Origin: Escherichia coli
GTDB taxonomy: Bacteria; Pseudomonadota; Gammaproteobacteria; Enterobacterales; Enterobacteriaceae
Assembly (NCBI RefSeq): GCF_044647545.1
Contig: NZ_CP172818.1
DNA length: 64,000 nucleotides
Direction: 5' to 3' (one strand)
A model generated the notes under the pieces. That model was not told the origin of the DNA, made no database searches, and worked only from the letters and a program-made list of their open reading frames with translations. Each line of letters opens with the position of its first letter. The first letter of the stretch is position 1. Below, piece by piece: positions 1,650-64,000 of this stretch. The translations under genes were made by a program, and so were the position numbers.

Positions 1650-2024
1650 AATTCACACCCTTATAAGGCTGGGAAAGCAGACGGAATCAAAACGAAACGC
1701 AACGTGCGAGATCGACTAACTGCACCATACTCTCCTGAAATATGAAGATATACTGAAAACAAATAAGCGACTTAGGACAGTTTCAATCTACGCTACTGTT
1801 CTTCAGAAGAGTATAGCCCATCGTAATTATTTTTCGGTGACAGCGAATATCGTATGTTTTTTCATGTTCATACATTTTTATTAGGGGATTTATGACTGTT
1901 TAACTAAGTGTGGTTAATTGCGTAGTTAATTTGACTTAAGTAAGCATGATTACTAGTGGGATATTTCAAGAGGGTAACAAGCCGGGGGGAAAGCACCGGC
2001 TTGTTACAAAGTAAGAATGGGAGT

Positions 2025-3344
2025 TTAACTGCCCCAACGACTTTGCAGATAGCTGACCGCTTGTTGAGTCTGTGGCTTATTCAGATAGTCCTCACGGAAC
2101 AAGATTGTGCCGCTAATTTCTGGCACGGCATCGTTAAGATCGAGCTGCTTTTTCAGTTCCGGTACGCCGCCGTTAATCATCCAGTCTGGCTCTATCTTTG
2201 AAGGTTCACCCACTTTATAGAAGGCGATACCGATATACAGGCGGGTCCTGGTCGGTTTAACGACATCCGCCCACCATTTTGCCAACACGTCATAACGTGC
2301 GGCACTCCGTGAGAACGGCCAGTAAATTTGGGGAGCAATGTAATCCAGCAACCCTTGTTCCACCCATCGACGGGTATCAGCGTAGGATTCGTCATAGGCT
2401 GCCGCGCCTCGGGTATCGGAACCGAGCGGATCGTGTGATCGGTTACGCCACACGCCTGCCGGGCTAACGCCAAATTCGACTTCCGGCTTAATGCTTTTAA
2501 TGGTGTGCGATACCTTCGCAATTAACTGCTGAGTATTGTTGCGCCGCCAGTCTGCTTTTGACGCAAATGCGCCGCCGTATTTGCGGTACGTTTCGTTATC
2601 ATTTAGCCGTGAAGCTGGTGACTCAGTATAGAAATAGTCGTCAAACTGCACGCCATCTACCGGATAGCGGGAAACCACTTCTGCGACTATTGATGTGATC
2701 CAGTCCTGAACCTCAGGGATGCCCGGGTCGAGGACAAAGCGATCGCCGGACGTTCTGATCCAGTCGCGGTGTTGCACATAGACGCTGGCCGGTTGTTGAG
2801 ACAGGGTGCTATTCAGTTCCCTGATAGTACCGGGCTTCGTATTAACCGATACGCGATAGGGGTTAAACCATGCGTGTACTTTCATCCCACGCTTGTGGGC
2901 TTCGTCGAGCATGAATTGCAGCGGATCGTAACCCGGATTTTCACCAATCTTACCGGTCATAAGATCGGACCACGGCAAAATTTTCGATGGCCACAGGGCG
3001 GTACCATCCGGCTTGACCTGAAAAAAGACCGTGTTTATGCCGAGACGTTGCAGATGATCCAGTTTGTCGATCATCGCCTGTTGTTGTACACGGGCCCGGC
3101 TGGTGGGGTTACTAATGTTAACCGAGGAAAGCGGTGGCCAGTCGAGGCGAGACACCGTGGCCAGCCAGATGCCACGCATCGGTTGTGACGATTGTTGCGT
3201 CGTGGCTGGTGGCTTTGAACCCGCTGGTGGTGTCACCATGGACTCTGGAGGCGTGCTTTTACAACTACACAGTAAAAGTGCCAGTGCAACCAGTATCGCT
3301 GGTCTTCTAATCGCTAATTTCTCGTTTCGGGAGCAGATATCCAT
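2025..3344 (-). CDS. yddW: lipoprotein YddW, glycoside-hydrolase-like family, 439 aa
   Basis: 439-aa ORF with signal peptide and lipobox-like LLLCSC near N-terminus; position between dosC and gadC matches K-12. Confidence 0.8.
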   Translation of the reverse strand: MDICSRNEKLAIRRPAILVALALLLCSCKSTPPESMVTPPAGSKPPATTQQSSQPMRGIWLATVSRLDWPPLSSVNISNPTSRARVQQQAMIDKLDHLQRLGINTVFFQVKPDGTALWPSKILPWSDLMTGKIGENPGYDPLQFMLDEAHKRGMKVHAWFNPYRVSVNTKPGTIRELNSTLSQQPASVYVQHRDWIRTSGDRFVLDPGIPEVQDWITSIVAEVVSRYPVDGVQFDDYFYTESPASRLNDNETYRKYGGAFASKADWRRNNTQQLIAKVSHTIKSIKPEVEFGVSPAGVWRNRSHDPLGSDTRGAAAYDESYADTRRWVEQGLLDYIAPQIYWPFSRSAARYDVLAKWWADVVKPTRTRLYIGIAFYKVGEPSKIEPDWMINGGVPELKKQLDLNDAVPEISGTILFREDYLNKPQTQQAVSYLQSRWGS

Positions 3345-23361: not shown

Positions 23362-23890
23362 ATAAACGCTCCATATACAAACAATACAGCCACGAAAGAG
23401 ATGAGTCGTCAGACATTAAAAATGAAACTTATTAAATTGTCAGAGGTCTGTATTGAGTGTTGGTTGGAGGTGGGAAGGTGTCAATTTGGCTAATTTGCTA
23501 ATACTTTCGAATTGATAGATTAAAAATTGCATAGTTCTTATTTTATTTAAAAATGAACCATGAGTTATTGTTGCTTAATAAGAAAAATATTTCTTTCAAT
23601 AAGAAAATTACCATCATCATATTTAACAAAGAATAGCACTAATTGCTAAAAAAGAACTCTATTAAAACTCTTTTTCATTCATTTATGCCTTTAGGAATAT
23701 TCGCTATAAAATAAGGGTTATGCTTAATGTTTTAAGAAAAATAGCAATTTTCCCTTGAATATAGTACTGGCGATGGAACGATGAATCTGCAAGCTGGCAT
23801 TTAACAAGCCAGTTCTAAAAGAAGGGAAATAAGAATAACTATACTCAAAAACTAACAGCCACGGTCATCATGATGTGGCTGTCAATGAAA

Positions 23891-45587: not shown

Positions 45588-45806
45588 ATGAAACCACTTT
45601 TATCCGCAATAGCAGCTGCGCTTATTCTCTTTTCCGCGCAGGGCGTTGCGGAACAAACCACGCAGCAGTTTGTTACTTCCTGTGCCAATGTCGTGGTTGT
45701 TCCCCCATCGCAGGAACAACCACCGTTTGATTTAAATCACATGGGTACTGGCAGTGATAAGTCGGATGCGCTCGGCGTGCCCTATTATAATCAACACGCT
45801 ATGTAG
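45588..45806 (+). CDS. marB: periplasmic protein MarB, 72 aa
   Basis: 72-aa ORF with signal peptide, third gene of mar operon. Confidence 0.85.
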   Translation: MKPLLSAIAAALILFSAQGVAEQTTQQFVTSCANVVVVPPSQEQPPFDLNHMGTGSDKSDALGVPYYNQHAM

Positions 45807-45836
45807 TTTGTTCTGGCCCCGACATATCGGGGCTTA

Positions 45837-46736
45837 TTAACTTCCCACTTTTACCGCTTTACGCCACCGCAAGCCAAATACATTGATATACAGCCCGGTC
45901 ATAATGAGCACCGCACCGAAAAATTGCAGGCCCGTTAAGCGTTCATCCAGCAATAGTGCCGCACTTGCCAGTCCAACTACAGGCACCAGTAACGATAACG
46001 GTGCAACCCGCCAGGTTTCATAGCGTCCCAGTAACGTCCCCCAGATCCCATAACCAACAATTGTCGCCACAAACGCCAGATACATCAGAGACAAGATGGT
46101 GGTCATATCGATAGTAACCAGACTGTGAATCATGGTTGCGGAACCATCGAGAATCAGCGAGGCAACAAAGAAGGGAATGATTGGGATTAATGCGCTCCAG
46201 ATTACCAGCGACATCACCGCCGGACGCGTTGCGTGCGACATGATCTTTTTATTGAAGATGTTGCCACACGCCCAACTAAATGCTGCCGCCAGGGTCAACA
46301 TAAAGCCGAGCATCGCCACATGCTGACCGTTCAGACTATCTTCGATTAACACCAGTACGCCAAAAATCGCTAAGGCGATCCCCGCCAATTGTTTGCCATG
46401 CAGTCGCTCCCCGAAAGTAAACGCGCCAAGCACGATAGTAAAAAACGCCTGTGCCTGTAACACCAGCGAAGCCAGTCCAGCAGGCATACCAAAGTTAATG
46501 GCGCAGAACAGAAAGGCAAACTGCGCAAAACTGATGGTTAATCCATACCCCAGCAGCAAATTCAGTGGTACTTTCGGTCGTGCGACAAAAAAGATAGCCG
46601 GAAAAGCAACCAGCATAAAGCGCAAACCGGCCAACATCAGCGGTGGCATGTTATGAAGCCCCACTTTGATGACCACAAAATTTAGCCCCCATACGACCAC
46701 TACCAGTAGCGCCAACACCCCATCTTTTCGCGACAT
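45837..46736 (-). CDS. eamA: cysteine/O-acetylserine exporter EamA (YdeD), 299 aa
   Basis: ORF track 306 aa; trimmed to MSRKDGVLALLVVVVWGLNF start (299 aa); DMT-superfamily 10-TM protein. Confidence 0.85.
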   Translation of the reverse strand: MSRKDGVLALLVVVVWGLNFVVIKVGLHNMPPLMLAGLRFMLVAFPAIFFVARPKVPLNLLLGYGLTISFAQFAFLFCAINFGMPAGLASLVLQAQAFFTIVLGAFTFGERLHGKQLAGIALAIFGVLVLIEDSLNGQHVAMLGFMLTLAAAFSWACGNIFNKKIMSHATRPAVMSLVIWSALIPIIPFFVASLILDGSATMIHSLVTIDMTTILSLMYLAFVATIVGYGIWGTLLGRYETWRVAPLSLLVPVVGLASAALLLDERLTGLQFFGAVLIMTGLYINVFGLRWRKAVKVGS

Positions 46737-54551: not shown

Positions 54552-54580
54552 ATGCCGCCGATGGCGGCATTGCTTTTTTT
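54552..54580. terminator. bidirectional rho-independent terminator between convergent ydfZ and ydfI
   Basis: Hairpin atgccgcc-gat-ggcggcat followed by TTTTTTT on plus strand. Confidence 0.6.
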
Positions 54581-56039
54581 ACTTCACGGAATATTTCGCC
54601 ACGGTCGCTTTCGCACCATGCGCTAATAAAGACAAGTACGCTTCCGTCACTTTTGCAGTAAACAAGCTATTGTCTGGCAAATCATCACCAAAGATCGCCT
54701 TAATCGCCAGCAATGACTGGACGCGCGCTTTCCCTTCGGCACTACTTTGTACAGCCTTCTGAATAACAGGTAACAGTGGGTCACTGATTTCTATCGGATT
54801 TCCCTGTTCATCAACACCACCGACATAACGCATCCAACCCGCGACGCCTAGCGCCAGCAGATCGAACTTGCTGTCATGCGCCAGATGCCAGCGAACAGAA
54901 TCCAACATCCGCTGTGGCAATTTCTGGCTGCCATCCATCGCAATCTGCCAGGTTCGATGACGTAGCGCCGGGTTGCTATAGCGTTCAATTAATCGGTTAG
55001 CGTAATCTTGCAAATCAACGCCCTGCACTTTCAACGTCGGCGCTTGTTCATGCAACATCAAGGCATACGCTGCATGACGATAATGTTCATCTTCCATGCA
55101 GTCATTAATGTGCTGATATCCGGCAAGATAACCCAGATACGCCAGGAATGAATGACTGCCGTTGAGCATGCGCAACTTCATCTCTTCATAAGGCAGCACA
55201 TCACTAACCAGTTCGGCTCCCGCTTTTTCCCATTCCGGACGTCCGGCAACAAAGTTATCTTCTATTACCCACTGGCGGAAAGGTTCACAGGCAACGCCAG
55301 CAGGATCGCGCACACCGGTAAGTTGTTCGATTTTCGCCAGCGTATCCTCTGTCACTGCGGGCACAATACGGTCCACCATTGTTGATGGGAAAGTCACGTT
55401 TTCTTCGATCCATTGTGCCAGTTTTACATCAACAGCTTGCGCGTAGGAAGTGACAACGTCACGCATAACATGACCGTTTTCTGGCATGTTGTCACATGAC
55501 ATGACGGTAAATGCGGGAAGTCCTGCCGCTTTACGGCGAGCCAGCGCCTCGACAATCACCCCTATTGCAGTTTTCGGCTGGTGGGGATTTTGTACATCGG
55601 CAACGACCATCGGGTGATCGGGCATTAACTGTCCGGTCGCCGGAGAGTGGAAATACCCTTTTTCGGTGATTGTCAGAGAGACAATCGCGATTTGCGGTTC
55701 ACACATCGCAGCCAACACGGTTTCTAAGCCATCAATCTGTACGTGCAAGGCTTTTTTAACGACGCCAACGACGCGAGCCGTCCACGCATCGGCCGACATT
55801 TCCGCAACGGTATAAAGATTATCTTGCTGTTGTAAATCGGCAATTTGCTGTTCGCCGCCGATTAAATTGACCTCATAATATCCCCAGTCACTGAAATGTT
55901 CCGTAGCAAGAATATCGGCATACACACCCTGATGCGCACGGTGAAATGCACCAAAGCCTAAATGAACAATTCTTGGGGCCAGGTTATTACGATCATAAAC
56001 AGGGAGCGTCGCTTTTGCTGATAACAAATTATTTCCCAT
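54579..56039 (-). CDS. ydfI: mannitol-dehydrogenase-family oxidoreductase YdfI, 486 aa
   Basis: 486-aa ORF with N-terminal Rossmann-type fold; co-oriented with ydfJ transporter. Confidence 0.85.
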
Positions 56040-56128
56040 AACAATTCCTTAAATTTAAATATGGCAAGCTGCATGTTTTGTTATATGAATAAAAAATCCC
56101 CTCTCCGGTAAGAGAAGGGATGGAGGAT

Positions 56129-57412
56129 TTACAGACTTCTTGAAGGTTGCGCTGCTGTTACAACACGCGGTTGATCTTCCGCGGCATCTTCCAGTGCACT
56201 TAAATCACGGTCTTTCACTTCTGGCATTTTCAGCGCAGAGATTAAACCAATCACTGAATATGCCATGATCATAATGGCGATCGGATACCAGGATTCCGTC
56301 ATGGTGCAGAAAATACCCGCCAGGATAGGACCAAAACCGGAAGCGATAAGACCACCAATTTCTTTAGAAATAGCCATCCGGGTAAAGCGGTTTTTACAGC
56401 CGAACATTTCTGCCATGGTAATGTTTTCCAGAGCAAATAATCCCAGCACCGCACAGTTATGAATCACAATCAGTGCAACCATAATGGTGCTCGGGGCATA
56501 GCTTTTATCTACGATGATAGAAAGCATTGGCCACGCCAGCACAATCGCAGAGGTATTCATAATAATATACGGGATCCGGCGACCTATTTTATCGGATAAC
56601 CAACCAAGGAACGGAATGGTCATAAAGCCGAGAATCGAACTGATCATCAATGCATCTGTTGGAATTGCTTTGTTAAACAATAACGTCTGCACTAAATAGC
56701 CTGCAAGGAAAGTCTGAATTAAACCTGAGTTACCAGCCTGACCAAAACGCAGCCCTGTTGCCAGCCAGAAGGATTTGCTCTGGAACATGCTACCAGCAGG
56801 TGCAGGTTTTGCTGTCGGTTGATTGCTGTCGTTAACCTTCTCAAAGACCGGGCTTTCTTTCAGATTCATACGCAACCAGATAGCAAAGACCATCACGACA
56901 ACGCTCGCCAGGAACGGTATACGCCATCCCCACGCCAACAGTTCCTCTTTACTGAGAATGAAGAACATAAAGGCCCAGATTGCCGTTGCGCTCAAGGTTC
57001 CGCAGTTAGTCCCCATAGCAACAAATGAGGAGATAATTCCGCGCTTACCTTTTGGCGCATATTCCGCCAGCATCGTACCGGCACCGGAAATTTCCGCACC
57101 TGCACCCAATCCCTGAATAATACGCAGCGTCACCAGCAAGATGGGTGCAAAAACACCAATCTGTGCATAGGTCGGTAACACACCAATTAAGGTGGTACAG
57201 ATCCCCATCATGGTGATGGTAATAAAGAGTACTTTTTTACGCCCTATTCTGTCGCCCATTTTGCCGAAAATAAATGCTCCGACAATACGCGCCACATAAC
57301 CTGCACCGTAGGTTCCCATTGCCAGAATTAACGCCATTGCCGTTGATGATTCAGGAAAAAATATTTCATGAAACACTAACGCTGCGCCGAGCGAATATAA
57401 CTGGAAATCCAT
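56129..57412 (-). CDS. ydfJ: MFS metabolite:H+ symporter YdfJ, apparently N-terminally truncated (427 aa)
   Basis: MFS signature GKMGDRIGRKK occurs at residue about 50 of the ORF, implying TM1 and upstream sequence are missing; the 5-prime end abuts the prophage boundary. Confidence 0.7.
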   Translation of the reverse strand: MDFQLYSLGAALVFHEIFFPESSTAMALILAMGTYGAGYVARIVGAFIFGKMGDRIGRKKVLFITITMMGICTTLIGVLPTYAQIGVFAPILLVTLRIIQGLGAGAEISGAGTMLAEYAPKGKRGIISSFVAMGTNCGTLSATAIWAFMFFILSKEELLAWGWRIPFLASVVVMVFAIWLRMNLKESPVFEKVNDSNQPTAKPAPAGSMFQSKSFWLATGLRFGQAGNSGLIQTFLAGYLVQTLLFNKAIPTDALMISSILGFMTIPFLGWLSDKIGRRIPYIIMNTSAIVLAWPMLSIIVDKSYAPSTIMVALIVIHNCAVLGLFALENITMAEMFGCKNRFTRMAISKEIGGLIASGFGPILAGIFCTMTESWYPIAIMIMAYSVIGLISALKMPEVKDRDLSALEDAAEDQPRVVTAAQPSRSL

Positions 57413-58198
57413 AATTCACAGGTGTTTTTTCCCATCCTGTGGTTTCCTTGGCGTTTTCTAGGTTTTTTCAGATAGTTGCATTTTTTAAAAAGCATCCTAA
57501 GTTCGATCTCAGTGTCTATCTGGGGCCTATTTCTGTCCCATATATGCCCCAAAAAAAACTCCCCAACAGATAAGTAGTTTTTTCATGGATTTATGCGTAA
57601 AATCAAGAACGGCTGGAAATCATTCAATACTCACACTATCGAAAAATTTACCAGCCAACCGCAGCACGTTCTTGCATAAGGCGTGTCTGCGGTTTTTCAA
57701 CTATTCAGATACATCACTCCCATCACATTCATTCCTCCGCATCAAAGGCATATAGGCTATATCACCTTGATATTTTTCTTTTTCAGATAAAAACTGTTAT
57801 CTATGTATACTTTTAAACCCAATCCGTGTAGAGTCTCTGCATAAGATAGTTTACAGTTGCCGCTTCAGCTTGCGCCATAAACCGCCTGATTTTTGCTGCC
57901 ACCTGTTAGCATTCCTGTATACCTGAAACGACAATGTTTATCTACGAACTTTAAGAACACCCAAGATAAAAATTGTCAACTATATCATATATAACACATT
58001 ACTAATTCGAGGCTATATGAACAGCATACTGATAATCACATCTCTCCTTATCATATTCAGCATTTTTAGTCATGCCCTAATAAAATTAGGGATTGGCATA
58101 TCCAATAACCCAGACAAAACCGATGTATAAGTCAACATATCCTGAATCAGACATACAATATCGCAATGAAAATCAATAATATTTTAAGGAATATCTTC

Positions 58199-58432
58199 AT
58201 GAAATCAAAAGACACCCTAAAGTGGTTCCCTGCGCAGCTTCCTGAAGTAAGAATTATCCTAGGGGATGCTGTAGTGGAAGTAGCAAAACAGGGAAGACCT
58301 ATCAATACCAGAACATTGCTTGATTACATTGAAGGAAACATAAAGAAAAAATCATGGCTGGATAACAAAGAATTATTACAAACAGCGATATCAGTTCTTA
58401 AAGACAACCAAAATTTAAATGGTAAAATGTAA
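58199..58432 (+). CDS. ydfK: Qin prophage protein YdfK, 77 aa
   Basis: Trimmed to MKSKDTLKWFPAQLPEVRIILGDAVVEVAKQGRPINTRTLLDYIEGNIKKK... start. Confidence 0.75.
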   Translation: MKSKDTLKWFPAQLPEVRIILGDAVVEVAKQGRPINTRTLLDYIEGNIKKKSWLDNKELLQTAISVLKDNQNLNGKM

Positions 58433-58748
58433 TATAATAAACTTACTTTTTTATCATTTTTCCACTTTAACAACATTTTGCTCCACTTTTCCACGACCAA
58501 ACAACTTGAAATCTGGTTAAAATAACACGCAACACTATTCTTCTTCCTTGAGTCCGCCCGGAACTCGAAAAACAAACCGAGTTAAAGCCTTTTTTCACAA
58601 AATCGATTTTGGGTCTCACCAAAATTACGGGGTTGCATACGCATTCGTTTATTTTCGAACGTGTACATACAAATATGCACAAAAATAATCATAATTATTT
58701 TCTGAGATGCATTATGATATGAACACCAATTTCGTATAGAGTCTCACT

Positions 58749-59339
58749 ATGTCTCGAATTTTTGCTTACTGTCGGATATCAACGCTGGATCAGACCACCG
58801 AAAATCAACGCCGGGAAATCGAAAGTGCAGGTTTTAAAATCAAACCTCAGCAAATAATCGAAGAACACATTAGCGGCTCAGCAGCAACCAGTGAGCGTCC
58901 TGGTTTTAACCGGTTGCTTGCTCGCCTGAAATGTGGTGATCAATTGATTGTGACAAAACTGGATCGCCTTGGTTGTAATGCAATGGATATCAGGAAAACA
59001 GTGGAACAACTGACCGAAACAGGTATCAGAGTGCATTGCTTAGCATTGGGTGGCATTGACCTGACCAGTCCAACAGGAAAAATGATGATGCAAGTAATTT
59101 CAGCAGTCGCTGAATTTGAACGAGACCTTTTACTTGAACGCACTCATTCCGGGATAGTAAGAGCCCGCGGCGCAGGGAAACGTTTTGGTCGACCACCTGT
59201 GTTAAATGAAGAACAGAAACAGGTGGTATTCGAACGAATTAAGTCAGGTGTAAGTATAAGTGCCATTGCCCGGGAATTCAAAACCTCGCGGCAAACCATT
59301 TTAAGAGCCAAAGCAAAACTTCAGACACCTGACATATAA
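58749..59339 (+). CDS. pinQ: serine DNA invertase PinQ (Hin/Gin/Pin family), 196 aa
   Basis: Resolvase/invertase N-terminal catalytic domain (YCRISTLDQ with catalytic Ser) and C-terminal HTH. Confidence 0.9.
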
Positions 59340-59436
59340 AAAATAATCTCGGTGTGAGATGCTTTACGTCTTCCAAGCCCCCTTCCTTGCCGTAAATGGA
59401 AAGATACATCTAATTATAGAATTTATATGTTTTACC

Positions 59437-60011
59437 CTACGGCAGTGCTGGCCATTCAATATCCTGTGCAGTTGACGTATCAACACGGTTCAGCAATACC
59501 CGATACTTTTTCCATGCTTCCAGCAACGGGGTTTCTTCCTCCGTTGCAATTTCCAGATCTGCAGCATCCTGAAGCGGCGCAATATGCTCACTGGCTACCT
59601 GCATCAGGTTGTTTTTTTTTCTTCCGCTTCCCGTATCCGAAACAGTTTTTCTGCTTCCTCATCATTCACCCAGGATACGCCGTCCCACTTCTGATACTCC
59701 CCTGCTGGCGACAACCAGGTGACATTCTCTGGTAGCGGTCCGAGTTCAGAAATAAACAATGCGTCCCCCGACGCCACGTCATAGACCGTTTTACCACGAT
59801 GGTCTTCAACAATATTCCACGATTCATTTTCACTGTTAAAAACTGCCACAAAGCCAGCAGGAATTTCCGGTGGGGCGATATCTGTAGAATTAGCTGGCAG
59901 CCCTGTATGAGGTGGAATATATGCGTCACCTTCACCAATAAACTCATTAGTTCCGGCCAGCAGGTTATAAATTTTTACGGTACGTGATTGTTCACTCATT
60001 CTGAATGCCAT
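59437..60011 (-). pseudogene. tfaQ: tail-fibre assembly protein TfaQ, disrupted by a -1 frameshift in an A9 homopolymer
   Basis: ORF 59604-60011 (135 aa) ends ...EEKKTT stop inside a run of nine A (coding strand; T-run at 59612-59620). Shifting frame by one A continues as [58 protein letters not shown] to a stop at 59437-59439, giving the expected 191-aa protein. Confidence 0.8.
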
Positions 60012-60934
60012 TATGCAAGCCTCACAATATAATTAAATGCGATGTTTTTAACGGTGTTTTCCGCGTTACCAGCAGCGTTAACGGTGATGGTGTGTCCATG
60101 TGAACCAATCTTAACAGAGTGCGTATGAGCGCCAATACCAACAGTGTGTGCATGTGCCCCAGCACTTGTAGCGGTACCTGATACTGAGTGGGTATGTGCG
60201 CCAGAAGAAGGCACAGTTCCATTCCCCACCACCGTGCCACTTGATGAACCATCCAGCCAGTCGAAATTCATACCGCCACTGTTTGGTCTCCTTAATGGAA
60301 CGGTATGAGTATGTGCGCCAGCACTATTTGCAGTACCAGATACATTGTGGGTATGTGCACCTGTGTTATTCGTTGATTTAGTACCGTAATCAAACGACGA
60401 TGTGGTTTTCGTACCCAAATCCGTACTGGATGCGCTGGCACTGTGGGTGTGCGATTTAATGCCATCCTGTTCCTGAGACAATACGGCCCGACCACTGGCG
60501 GGTTTGCCCTTGATTGTCCAGCCGCGCATATCTGGAATAACACCAGAAGGATAGGCAATAGCCAGTTTCGGATATGCTGCCTTATCAAACGTCTGCCCCT
60601 GCATGATTGCATAACCTGCAGGTGGCGTATCTGATGGCCACGGGATTGGTGCACCGACTGGATAAAACTCTGCAGGAGGATGAGCCGAGGTGTAAAGCTG
60701 CGCCCACGGCGACCAGTTTGCGTCGGTCGTATCCCGTCGTGAACGAATAAATGCCGGAGCATGAGCACCGCTTGTACCACTCCAGCCGATGAGTAACTCA
60801 CCTTCGCCAACGGCTGTCATCCCTTTCAGGTGAATGATATTTCCATACGCTGTTGGATATCCGTTGTTATACACCTCGTATAACTCAAGACCTGCTGCCC
60901 CCTGCGTATTGTCTGTCAGCGCGGTTATATTCAC
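60011..60934 (-). CDS. stfQ: side tail fibre protein remnant StfQ (YdfN), 307 aa
   Basis: Repeated GAHTH(S/T)V motifs typical of phage side-tail-fibre C-terminal regions; stop overlaps tfaQ start by 1 nt. Confidence 0.75.
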
Positions 60935-61454
60935 TCAGCAACCCCGGTATCAGTTCATCCAGCGCGGCTGCTTTGTTCATGGCTTTGATAATATCCCGTT
61001 TCAGGAAATCAACATGTCGGTTTTCCAGTTCCGGAAAACGCCGCTGCACCGACAGGGGGAGCCCGTCGAGAATACTGGCAATTTCACCTGCGATCCGCGA
61101 CAACACGAAAGTACAGAATGCGGTTTCCACCACTTCAGCGGAGTCTCTGGCATTCTTCAGTTCCTGTGCGTCGGCCTGCGCACGCGTAAGTCGATGGCGT
61201 TCGTACTCAATAGTTCCTGGCTGGAGATCTGCCTCGCTGGCCTGCCGCAGTTCTTCAACCTCCCGGCGCAGCTTTTCGTTCTCAATTTCAGCATCCCTTT
61301 CGGCATACCATTTTATGACGGCGGCAGAGTCATAAAGCACCTCATTACCCTTGCCACCGCCTCGCAGAACGGGCATTCCCTGTTCCTGCCAGTTCTGAAT
61401 GGTACGGATACTCGCACCGAAAATGTCAGCCAGCTGCTTTTTGTTGACTTCCAT
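60885..61454 (-). CDS. nohQ: phage terminase small subunit (Nu1-like) remnant NohQ, 189 aa
   Basis: N-terminus [29 protein letters not shown] is a Nu1-type HTH; 3-prime end overlaps stfQ by 50 nt in a different frame, consistent with a deletion-fusion junction. Confidence 0.7.
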
Positions 61455-61841
61455 TGTTCATTCCACGGACAAAAACAGAGAAAGGAAACGACAGAGGCCA
61501 AAAAGCTCGCTTTCAGCACCTGTCGTTTCCTTTCTTTCAGAGGGTATTTTAAATAAAAACATTAAGTTATGACGAAGAAGAACGGAAACGCCTTAAACCG
61601 GAAATTTTTCATAAATAGCGAAAACCCGCGAGGTCGCCGCCCCGTAACCTGTCGGATCGCCGGAAAGGACCCGCAAAATGATAATAATTATCATCTGCAT
61701 GTCACAACGTGCATCTACGCCATCAAACCACGTCAAATAATCAATTATGACGCAGGTATCATATTAATTGATCTGCATCAACTTAACGTAAAAACAACTT
61801 CAGACAATACAAATCAGCGACACTAAATACGGGACAACCTC

Positions 61842-62075
61842 ATGTCAACGAAGAACAGAACCCGCAGAACAACAATCCGCAACATCCGCTTTCCTAACCA
61901 AATGATTGAACAAATTAACATCGCTCTTGATCAAAAAGGGTCCGGGAATTTCTCAGCCTGGGTCATTGAAGCCTGCCGCCGGAGACTGTGCTCAGAAAAA
62001 AGAGTTTCTCCTGAAGCAAACAAAGAAAAGAGTGACATTACTGAATTGCTCAGAAAACAGATCAGACCAGATTGA
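61842..62075 (+). CDS. ynfO: Qin prophage protein YnfO, 77 aa
   Basis: 77-aa basic ORF (ribbon-helix-helix-like N-terminus); synteny. Confidence 0.65.
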   Translation: MSTKNRTRRTTIRNIRFPNQMIEQINIALDQKGSGNFSAWVIEACRRRLCSEKRVSPEANKEKSDITELLRKQIRPD

Positions 62076-62116
62076 AGCAATTTAGATAATCGTGCAGACT
62101 ACGCCCCTCATATCAC

Positions 62117-62542
62117 ATGGAAGGTACCACAATGGCTCAGGTTGCCATTTTTAAACAAATATTCGATAAAGTGCGAAATAATTTAAACTATCACTGGTTT
62201 TATTCTGAACTAAAACGTCACAATGTCTCACATTACATTTACTATTTAGCTACAGAGAATATTCATCTTGTTCTTGAAAACGATAATACGGTTTTAATAA
62301 AAGGACAGGGTAAGGTTGTAAATGTAAGATTTTCAAAAAATAAATGCCTTATAGAAGCCACCTTAAAAGGATTCAAATCAGGAGAGTTATCATTTTACGA
62401 ATACAGGAAAAATCTTGCTACAGCAGGGGTTTTCAGATGGATTACAAATATCCACGAAAACAAAAGGTATTACTATACCTTTGATAATTCATTACTCTTT
62501 ACTGAGAACATTCAGAACACTACACAAATATTTCCGCACTAA
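62117..62542 (+). CDS. ydfO: Qin prophage protein YdfO (DUF1398), start uncertain (62117 or 62132)
   Basis: 141-aa ORF; alternative start [11 protein letters not shown]; synteny. Confidence 0.65.
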
Positions 62543-62731
62543 ATCATAACGTCCGGTTTCTCTCACTCCTGAGCCGGACTGCATTGGTTTAATAAAAACC
62601 ATCGACAATCGAGATTTATATCTATTCGGTAATGTTTAAATATAACAAAACCCCGTAAAAACGAGGTTTATGGGTAATTTGTATTGTTGAATAGCATCTG
62701 ATGAGAAATTGATGCTAATACTATAAACATG

Positions 62732-62905
62732 CTAGATTAAATCAATCTTGATATCATAGCTTTCAAGACCAGTCATTTTTTCCCGTGCAGTAAACTGGAT
62801 ACTGGTAACTTCTTTCCCGGTCTTTTTCTTAAGCTCAATGATTTTTTTTGTTATATATTCAGAAATATCTGCTTCTGTTTTTGTTTTTAACTCTTCAATG
62901 TTCAT
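62732..62905 (-). CDS. gnsB: GnsB, 57 aa (overexpression suppressor of secG/fabA mutations)
   Basis: Trimmed to MNIEELKTKTEADISEYITKKIIELKKKTGKEVTSIQFTAREKMTGLESYDIKIDLI. Confidence 0.8.
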   Translation of the reverse strand: MNIEELKTKTEADISEYITKKIIELKKKTGKEVTSIQFTAREKMTGLESYDIKIDLI

Positions 62906-63077
62906 CATTTCCTCTTTTAGTCTGTTATGACTGTCCTGGTACACAGTAGTGTCAATTATATGGAGCAAACGTATAAAAGATAAGATGAAACATCGCAATA
63001 ATCAACATACGACGGTCTAAATTTCACACAAACAGATAAAGATGATTATCATTTATTATCAATGCATTAGAATCAAA

Positions 63078-63347
63078 TCAATTCAAGAGTCTCATTGCTG
63101 CTTCCAGAATTTCTTCTGAAGTTACATGTCGATCCGCTGCTACATAAATGACTTTATGATCTCCGGTCAGAGATGGAAACCCTGCAGCCATTACAGTGAG
63201 GTGTGTTGTTTCGCCATTTGGATATTCACGCATGATGGTGTTAACTCCGGTCATCACTGGCACTACCATTGCTGGTTCAGAGTTAAAAAAAACTATTATT
63301 TTTTTCATAATGTTACCGTAATATGTGAGTATCCATCGACTAGACAC
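63078..63347 (-). CDS. ynfN: Qin prophage small protein YnfN; true start probably internal (about 51 aa, MREYPNGETTHL...)
   Basis: ORF track 89 aa; located immediately downstream of cspI as in K-12; start not resolvable from sequence alone. Confidence 0.55.
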   Translation of the reverse strand: MSSRWILTYYGNIMKKIIVFFNSEPAMVVPVMTGVNTIMREYPNGETTHLTVMAAGFPSLTGDHKVIYVAADRHVTSEEILEAAMRLLN

Positions 63348-63579
63348 TAAGCAAAAAAGCTCCCGAAGGAGCCTTCATTTTCACTTTCTTAAATCTAACG
63401 ACAGATGGCTAACATTTAAGTATTGTGAAATATTATCAAATGTAATCATCATTGATTTACAAAAGATACATTTTGCCCCGAAAGGATTTCTGTCAGAAAC
63501 ATCAAAAGATGATGTTCTATACTGAGAACCATGGCAACACGGGCATCTAAAGTGAATATGGTTTGTAATATTTTCTACC

Positions 63580-63792
63580 TCAAAGTGCCACTACATGAAC
63601 AGCTGCAGGGCCTTTAGGTCCGTTCTCAATACCAAATTCGACTTCCTGATTCTCAGTTAACGTTTTGAAATCGTTGCTCTGAATAGCTGAGAAATGCACA
63701 AACACATCTTTGCTACCATCTTTCGGCGTGATGAAACCAAAACCTTTTTCAGGGTTAAACCATTTCACTAAACCAGTCATTTTGTTAGACAT
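63580..63792 (-). CDS. cspI: cold-shock protein CspI, 70 aa
   Basis: [38 protein letters not shown]... with RNP1 motif KGFGFI and RNP2-like VFVHF; long AT-rich 5-prime leader upstream (63793-64000) as typical for csp genes. Confidence 0.9.
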
Positions 63793-64000
63793 CATTATTA
63801 CCTTTTGAAGAAGTTAGCCCTTGGGCAGAATGGTCCGAAAAAAAAATATCAGAGAGAAAAACCAACAAGGAAATCTCAAGAGGTACAAATAATAAAATTA
63901 TAACAATGACTGCTTCAGATAATTTTGTAACAAACCAGAACACCATTAACGCATGATTAACCAACCATAGCAAGGATTACTTTTGTAAAGAAAAACACAC

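Follow-up and report, generated by a model that had tools for sequence, protein, structure and literature searches.

Insertion of a Qin-type prophage as the very probable cause of a 5'-truncated ydfJ gene in Escherichia coli

The window analyzed here, a stretch of 64,000 nucleotides of Escherichia coli DNA, contains a clean-looking 427-aa transporter ORF that is a gene fragment: the first 28 codons of ydfJ are missing, and the coding sequence breaks off where a Qin-type defective lambdoid prophage begins (Table 1). Site-specific insertion of a lambdoid phage into ydfJ almost certainly explains the truncation, the duplication of a short attachment-site core, and the presence, in relatives, of a complementary gene fragment at the distal prophage end. 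Truncation of ydfJ by Qin is already known and ordinary. A passage by Ramisetty and Sudhakari describes Qin at the 5' end of ydfJ, with loss of the promoter and of 28 N-terminal codons (Ramisetty and Sudhakari, 2019; PMC6379469), a table in another study names ydfJ as the gene into which Qin is inserted in K-12, B, W, and Crooks (PMC3032704), and a section of the SE11 genome report places the lambda-like prophage 3 (PP_SE11-3) between ydfJ and rspB (PMC2608844). The truncated gene of the window has little significance beyond its correct annotation; the left boundary of the prophage is now fixed at 57404-57418.

Table 1. Features of the window, and the gene-strand sequences compared at the ydfJ attachment site.
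Feature	Coordinates	Strand	Description
ydfI	54579..56039	-	mannitol-dehydrogenase family, downstream of ydfJ; from the ORF list
Terminator-like hairpin with T-run	56096..56121	-	just past the ydfJ stop codon; consensus match only
5'-truncated ydfJ	56129..57412	-	427-aa ORF with ATG start, the counterpart of residues 29-455 in full-length YdfJ (455 aa)
Proximal attachment-site core	57404..57418		15 nt, reading TGAATTATGGATTTC on the - strand; holds the ATG of the ORF
Left 6.6 kb of Qin-type defective lambdoid prophage	57419..64000		runs past the window end
attP-derived prophage arm next to the core	57419..57565		kept among different prophages at the site
ynfT	58016-58129	+	ORF; K-12 Qin gene order
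ydfK	58198-58431	+	ORF; K-12 Qin gene order
pinQ	58749-59339	+	ORF; K-12 Qin gene order
tfaQ, frameshifted	59437-60011	-	ORF; K-12 Qin gene order
Tail-fibre fragment	60011-60934	-	ORF; K-12 Qin gene order
nohA	60885-61454	-	ORF; K-12 Qin gene order
ynfO	61842-62075	+	ORF; K-12 Qin gene order
ydfO	62117-62542	+	ORF; K-12 Qin gene order
cspI	63580-63795	-	ORF; K-12 Qin gene order
Empty site (attB)		gene strand	...GGGCACAGCGCT TGAATTTATGGATTTC CAGTTATATTCG...; junction comparison
Window, proximal junction		gene strand	...GGAAAAAACACCTG TGAATT-ATGGATTTC CAGTTATATTCG...; junction comparison
Distal prophage end, K-12 J53 and BS-01			...GGGCACTGCGCT TGAATTTATGGATTTC AAGAGTCATG..., then integrase pseudogene; junction comparison

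The Truncated Gene and Its Junction

The ORF in the window is identical at 427 of 427 positions to residues 29-455 of YdfJ from strain C4, in which the site is empty. Two codons ahead of the ATG, an in-frame TGA closes the reading frame, so that the ydfJ frame cannot extend further. The MFS motif GKMGDRIGRKK occupies residues 50-60 of this ORF, as against a start at residue 78 in the intact protein, in keeping with the original prediction, which had placed the MFS loop near residue 50, earlier than expected. The extent of 56129-57420 that had been assigned to the gene is correct as to the ORF but not as to its end, as 57420 lies 8 nt past the ATG at 57412 and the excess spans the junction core. 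The 5' end of the ORF had also been said to coincide with the onset of AT-rich prophage DNA; indeed, the GC fraction falls from 0.466 in the body of ydfJ to 0.382 over 57419-58015 and 0.358 over 57419-58748. In J53, PI12, O111, IMT16316, and BS-01, the corresponding gene carries the PGAP label "incomplete; missing N-terminus".

The DNA around the core bears out the predicted Qin-type insertion junction inside ydfJ, as the attB and window sequences part at the core. In intact ydfJ, GCGCT is followed by TGAATTTATGGATTTC and CAGTTAT, whereas in the window prophage DNA ending in CACCTG leads through TGAATT-ATGGATTTC into the same CAGTTAT. Empty-site genomes match the window only as far as 57418; there, at TGAATTATGGATTTC, identity to the intact allele ends and the target gene is interrupted. 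When a 241-nt attB probe spanning the empty site was used, its two half-matches overlapped on exactly 16 attB positions (121-136). In attB, the core has 16 nt; the window copy, in which TGAATT is short by one T, has 15, and this one-T difference is present in all six interrupted genomes examined. The 9 nt at 57404-57412, start codon included, are an exact repeat of the distal core copy. Because the one-T difference has been kept in all six interrupted genomes, the crossover probably fell within these 9 nt; the Qin boundary in the MG1655 annotation lies 9 nt inside ydfJ, which is consistent with a crossover interval of that length. The duplicated att core that had been proposed as a check was found as TGAATT(T)ATGGATTTC at both junctions in J53, MG1655, and BS-01. 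Base for base, the window junction equals that of K-12 J53 and IMT16316.

On this basis, a lambdoid phage with a tyrosine integrase, an ancestor or relative of the cryptic Qin of K-12, would have inserted by site-specific recombination into an attachment site at codons 27-31 of chromosomal ydfJ, with strand exchange within the shared ATGGATTTC. Such an event would have left codons 1-28 and one core copy by rspB, where the prophage has its integrase, and codons 29-455 and the other core copy by ydfI, at the tail-fibre/pinQ end, part of which lies in the window. As codon 29 happens to be an ATG, gene-finding programs return what looks like a clean ORF of 427 aa. The ORF would have been deprived of a promoter, a ribosome-binding site, and the connection to rspA-rspB, and the protein of its N-terminal tail and approximately the first half of transmembrane helix 1.

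Empty Sites and the Distal Fragment

The frequency of the interruption was surveyed in 5,426 complete E. coli genomes. The whole 241-nt probe, and hence an uninterrupted ydfJ site, was found in 2,009 of the 5,426, leaving approximately 63% without an uninterrupted ydfJ. In most of the other genomes, the two parts of the probe match at different places, with the 16-nt core common to both, and the junction of ydfJ with ynfT-ydfK-pinQ seen in the window is common to 1,984 of the 5,426. Other strains of the species thus hold the site empty. Strains C4 and HUSEC2011, for example, carry no prophage here and encode a 455-aa YdfJ directly downstream of rspB. In empty-site genomes, rspA, rspB, ydfJ, and ydfI are co-directional, with gaps of 57 nt and 89 nt; the prophage parts ydfJ-ydfI from rspA-rspB and removes the native start region of ydfJ. 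In E. coli CFT073, the rspA-rspB-ydfJ-ydfI cluster has reportedly been connected with the catabolism of L-gulonate. On the low-coordinate side, the neighbors of ydfJ are dcp, ydfG, rspR (ydfH), ydfZ, and ydfI, and the terminator-like hairpin that follows the ydfJ stop codon suggests that ydfI may have its own promoter. In the Nissle 1917 assembly CP171242 (L001 4129-5492), ydfJ is uninterrupted beside rspB yet frameshifted, with an ORF from Met29 of only 229 aa, which could reflect either independent inactivation or a sequencing error.

The missing N-terminal coding piece had been predicted to lie at the other end of the prophage, outside the window. No N-terminal copy of ydfJ occurs in the window, which extends just 6.6 kb into the prophage, and in three relatives the piece was found where it had been expected: in K-12 J53, MG1655, and BS-01, 28 codons and the core sit between rspB and an integrase pseudogene, starting 57 nt downstream of rspB. 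The distal core copy is directly beside the decayed integrase gene intQ in K-12 and BS-01, and the distance from distal to proximal core is 21,792 bp in J53, 20,454 bp in MG1655, and 20,806 bp in BS-01. By analogy with these relatives, the genome of the window should carry the same fragment, which would read ...ATGACAATAGAAAAACA(C/T)GAAAG...GCGCTTGAATTTATGGATTTC before passing into prophage DNA. In MG1655, the orphan piece is annotated as ynfP (b4534), of 36 aa (MTIEKHERSTKDLVKAAVSGWLGTALEFMDFKSHAC), and Table 1 of one report lists YnfP among small proteins detected in tagged form (PMC6001520). The curated MG1655 record (locus positions 2003-3286 and 23729-23839) gives the truncated ydfJ the status of a regular CDS and YnfP that of a separate protein; PGAP practice differs, calling ydfJ a pseudogene elsewhere and leaving the N-terminal piece unannotated.

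From ydfI through pinQ, the window and IMT16316 are 100% identical. An IS1 sits in the prophage arm of that strain (region 45682-46379), and the prophage there is far larger and more complete, with a second inserted element. The IS1 and the much larger prophage rule IMT16316 out as a stand-in for the distal junction of the genome under study.

Two other accounts of the missing N-terminus were weighed against insertion. In one, 427 aa would be the native length of YdfJ, and the 455-aa form reported elsewhere would be merely an extended annotation. A clean ATG start and an older 427-aa K-12 entry speak for this account, and nothing more. Homology between interrupted and empty-site DNA stops at the core rather than upstream of it, conservation across genera extends to the 28 extra residues, and the MHS-family, ShiA, and ProP profiles reach into those residues; a native length of 427 aa is thereby refuted and has practically no chance of being correct. 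A 427-aa YdfJ in prophage-free strains had been named beforehand as the finding that would refute the insertion, but such strains encode 455 aa instead. In the other account, the N-terminus was lost through deletion or rearrangement at the prophage edge, and the 28 codons would be found nowhere in this genome. That the distal end lies outside the window leaves some room for a deletion, as does the wide variation in size and content among prophages at the ydfJ site (PMC6379469). Nevertheless, a junction identical base for base to those of J53 and IMT16316, together with retention of the distal fragment in J53, MG1655, and BS-01, makes a deletion exceedingly improbable; moreover, approximately 5,370 of the 5,426 genomes match part of the attB probe, and in interrupted genomes its N-terminal half typically matches at a location of its own. 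Site-specific insertion is thus the strongly preferred explanation.

The Prophage Side of the Window

Phage genes adjoin the junction in the annotated order of K-12 Qin (Table 1). From 57000 to 64000, the window is 94.8-96.7% identical to K-12-like genomes over 98% of that interval, and no close match to the entire prophage part was found in the genome collection, the best being 96.7% over 7 kb. An alignment of the arm from the window, K-12, BS-01, PI12, and an O111 prophage is conserved over its first ~150 columns and then diverges. This ~150-nt arm (also at L006 4403-4800 and L009 2322-2405) holds the start of a dinI-like gene, which is intact in an O111:H8 prophage and a remnant in Qin-type elements; the BS-01 annotation likewise marks a DinI-family remnant.

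Further inside the element, tfaQ lacks one nucleotide of an A-run when compared with the K-12 gene (GAAGAAA-AAAAAAC versus GAAGAAACAAAAAAC), and this deletion splits it into ORFs of 135 and 55 aa. The DNA of ynfT (37 aa) is 100% identical to that of K-12; under an earlier name, the product appears in a portion of the small-protein report as a detected protein identical in sequence to YnaM of Rac (PMC6001520).

Transporter Family and the Loss Within Helix 1

The truncated YdfJ belongs to the metabolite/H+ symporter (MHS) family. Against TIGR00883, whose curated family cut-off is 443.45 bits, it scores 453.5 bits, compared with 462.9 for the intact protein, and it retains motif A (GxxxDRxGRK/R) between helices 2 and 3; the Pfam profiles MFS_1 and Sugar_tr also match. 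A complete 12-helix core including helix 1 is not present in the window ORF, judging from where the profile matches start and from the absence of 17 conserved residues. The truncated protein matches TIGR00883 positions 7-400, whereas the intact one matches 1-400, and its matches to the ShiA and ProP profiles begin only at positions 37-40, with approximately 18-25 further positions lost.

In Citrobacter, Enterobacter, Lelliottia, Leclercia, and Superficieibacter, the orthologous proteins measure 454-460 aa and have a conserved N-terminus. The last 17 of the 28 missing residues (DLVKAAVSGWLGTALEF) are nearly invariant across genera and continue directly into the retained MDFQLYSLGAALVF. Because this conserved lost stretch runs straight into retained sequence, the cut probably falls in the middle of helix 1, removing the cytoplasmic tail and about half of the helix. 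The original prediction that the ORF lacks the first transmembrane helix thus stands as to an N-terminal loss, of 28 aa, but probably not as to the whole helix. An AlphaFold2 model built with 17 close orthologues has a helix at residues 10-46, in agreement with a mid-helix cut, but carries little weight at a pLDDT of 39. Hydropathy over residues 15-45 gives a weak signal that does not settle the boundaries of helix 1, and a search by sequence found no solved structure of a YdfJ relative, so that the helix boundaries are weakly supported.

Expression and Fate of the Remnant

On the - strand between 57413 and 58180, no sigma-70-like promoter reading into ydfJ was found, the number of candidate sites being that expected from shuffled sequence, and no Shine-Dalgarno motif occurs within 10 nt of the truncated ydfJ ATG. 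The 427-codon frame is nonetheless open in all six interrupted copies examined, and pN/pS between ydfJ alleles is only 0.01-0.03, with 0-2 nonsynonymous versus 1-27 synonymous differences per pair.

Compared with K-12 J53, the prophage end of the window (57418-59339) differs by approximately 0.4%, whereas ydfI and ydfJ differ by approximately 2.2%. This contrast indicates that the prophage end descends from a more recent shared ancestor than the chromosomal flank, and it suggests that most allelic divergence in ydfJ arose before, or independently of, the insertion. The low pN/pS was accordingly rejected as a sign of selection on the remnant: since the alleles diverged mostly outside the period of the shared junction, the ratio would reflect the intact ancestor. 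Divergence jumps at the junction itself, the arm, ynfT, ydfK, and pinQ being approximately 5 times less diverged than the flanking genes.

It may still be asked whether the 427-aa YdfJ is made and useful, with transcription reading out of the prophage, translation from Met29, and maintenance by selection. Such a scenario would fit the intact frame in six of six interrupted genomes, the very low rate of nonsynonymous change, a score above the MHS cut-off (453.5 versus 443.45 bits), the listing of ydfJ as a CDS in MG1655 RefSeq, and an alteration of ydfJ RNA upon DicC induction, as given in part of one report (PMC11430063). The divergence of ~0.4% versus ~2.2%, however, makes the low pN/pS ancestral, and neither a promoter-like site nor a ribosome-binding site lies upstream; the loss of 17 nearly invariant helix 1 residues and the PGAP pseudogene call in every other genome looked at also count against a functional product, which we consider unlikely. 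Less likely again by a clear step is that YdfJ has been kept as an 11.5-helix transporter or pairs with a separately made 36-aa YnfP; if true, this would be a natural "split" MFS transporter made by a prophage. The truncated ydfJ is most likely a dead or nearly dead transporter gene.

Comparison With Known Systems

The closest known case is that of K-12, where Qin (NC_000913.3 1632277..1652745) splits ydfJ (b1543) from ynfP (b4534) and leaves the same 427-aa ORF, neighbors, and core. The K-12 junction is identical to that of the window over at least 70 nt on the prophage side, through the core, and into ydfJ, whereas the chromosomal flanks differ by ~2%. Unlike in K-12, tfaQ is frameshifted in the window. 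The tail-fibre fragment is 307 aa long in the window according to PGAP, compared with a 702-nt partial CDS in K-12 J53, although this length difference may be partly one of annotation, stfQ measuring 963 nt in MG1655 RefSeq. Other prophages at the site, namely those of O111:H8 and O157:H7 (with the dinI-like gene and nleG7), PP_SE11-3, and the large IMT16316 prophage, share the core, the truncated ydfJ, and the ~150-nt arm; these elements are complete or effector-bearing and differ in cargo and size, whereas the layout in the window is that of Qin, short and decayed.

Rac in ttcA and e14 in icd are two further cryptic prophages of K-12 that lie in gene ends; in both cases, the host protein stays whole. 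At ydfJ, unlike at these targets, the prophage supplies no replacement N-terminus, and the gene is therefore truncated. In other respects the cases are alike: as described in part of one study, Rac and e14 also entered coding sequence by site-specific insertion and duplicated a core (PMC6379469). According to a figure legend in the same source, a 163-bp pseudo-icd arises by duplication when e14 integrates at the icd 3' end, and integration of Rac alters the N-terminus of TtcA (PMC6379469).
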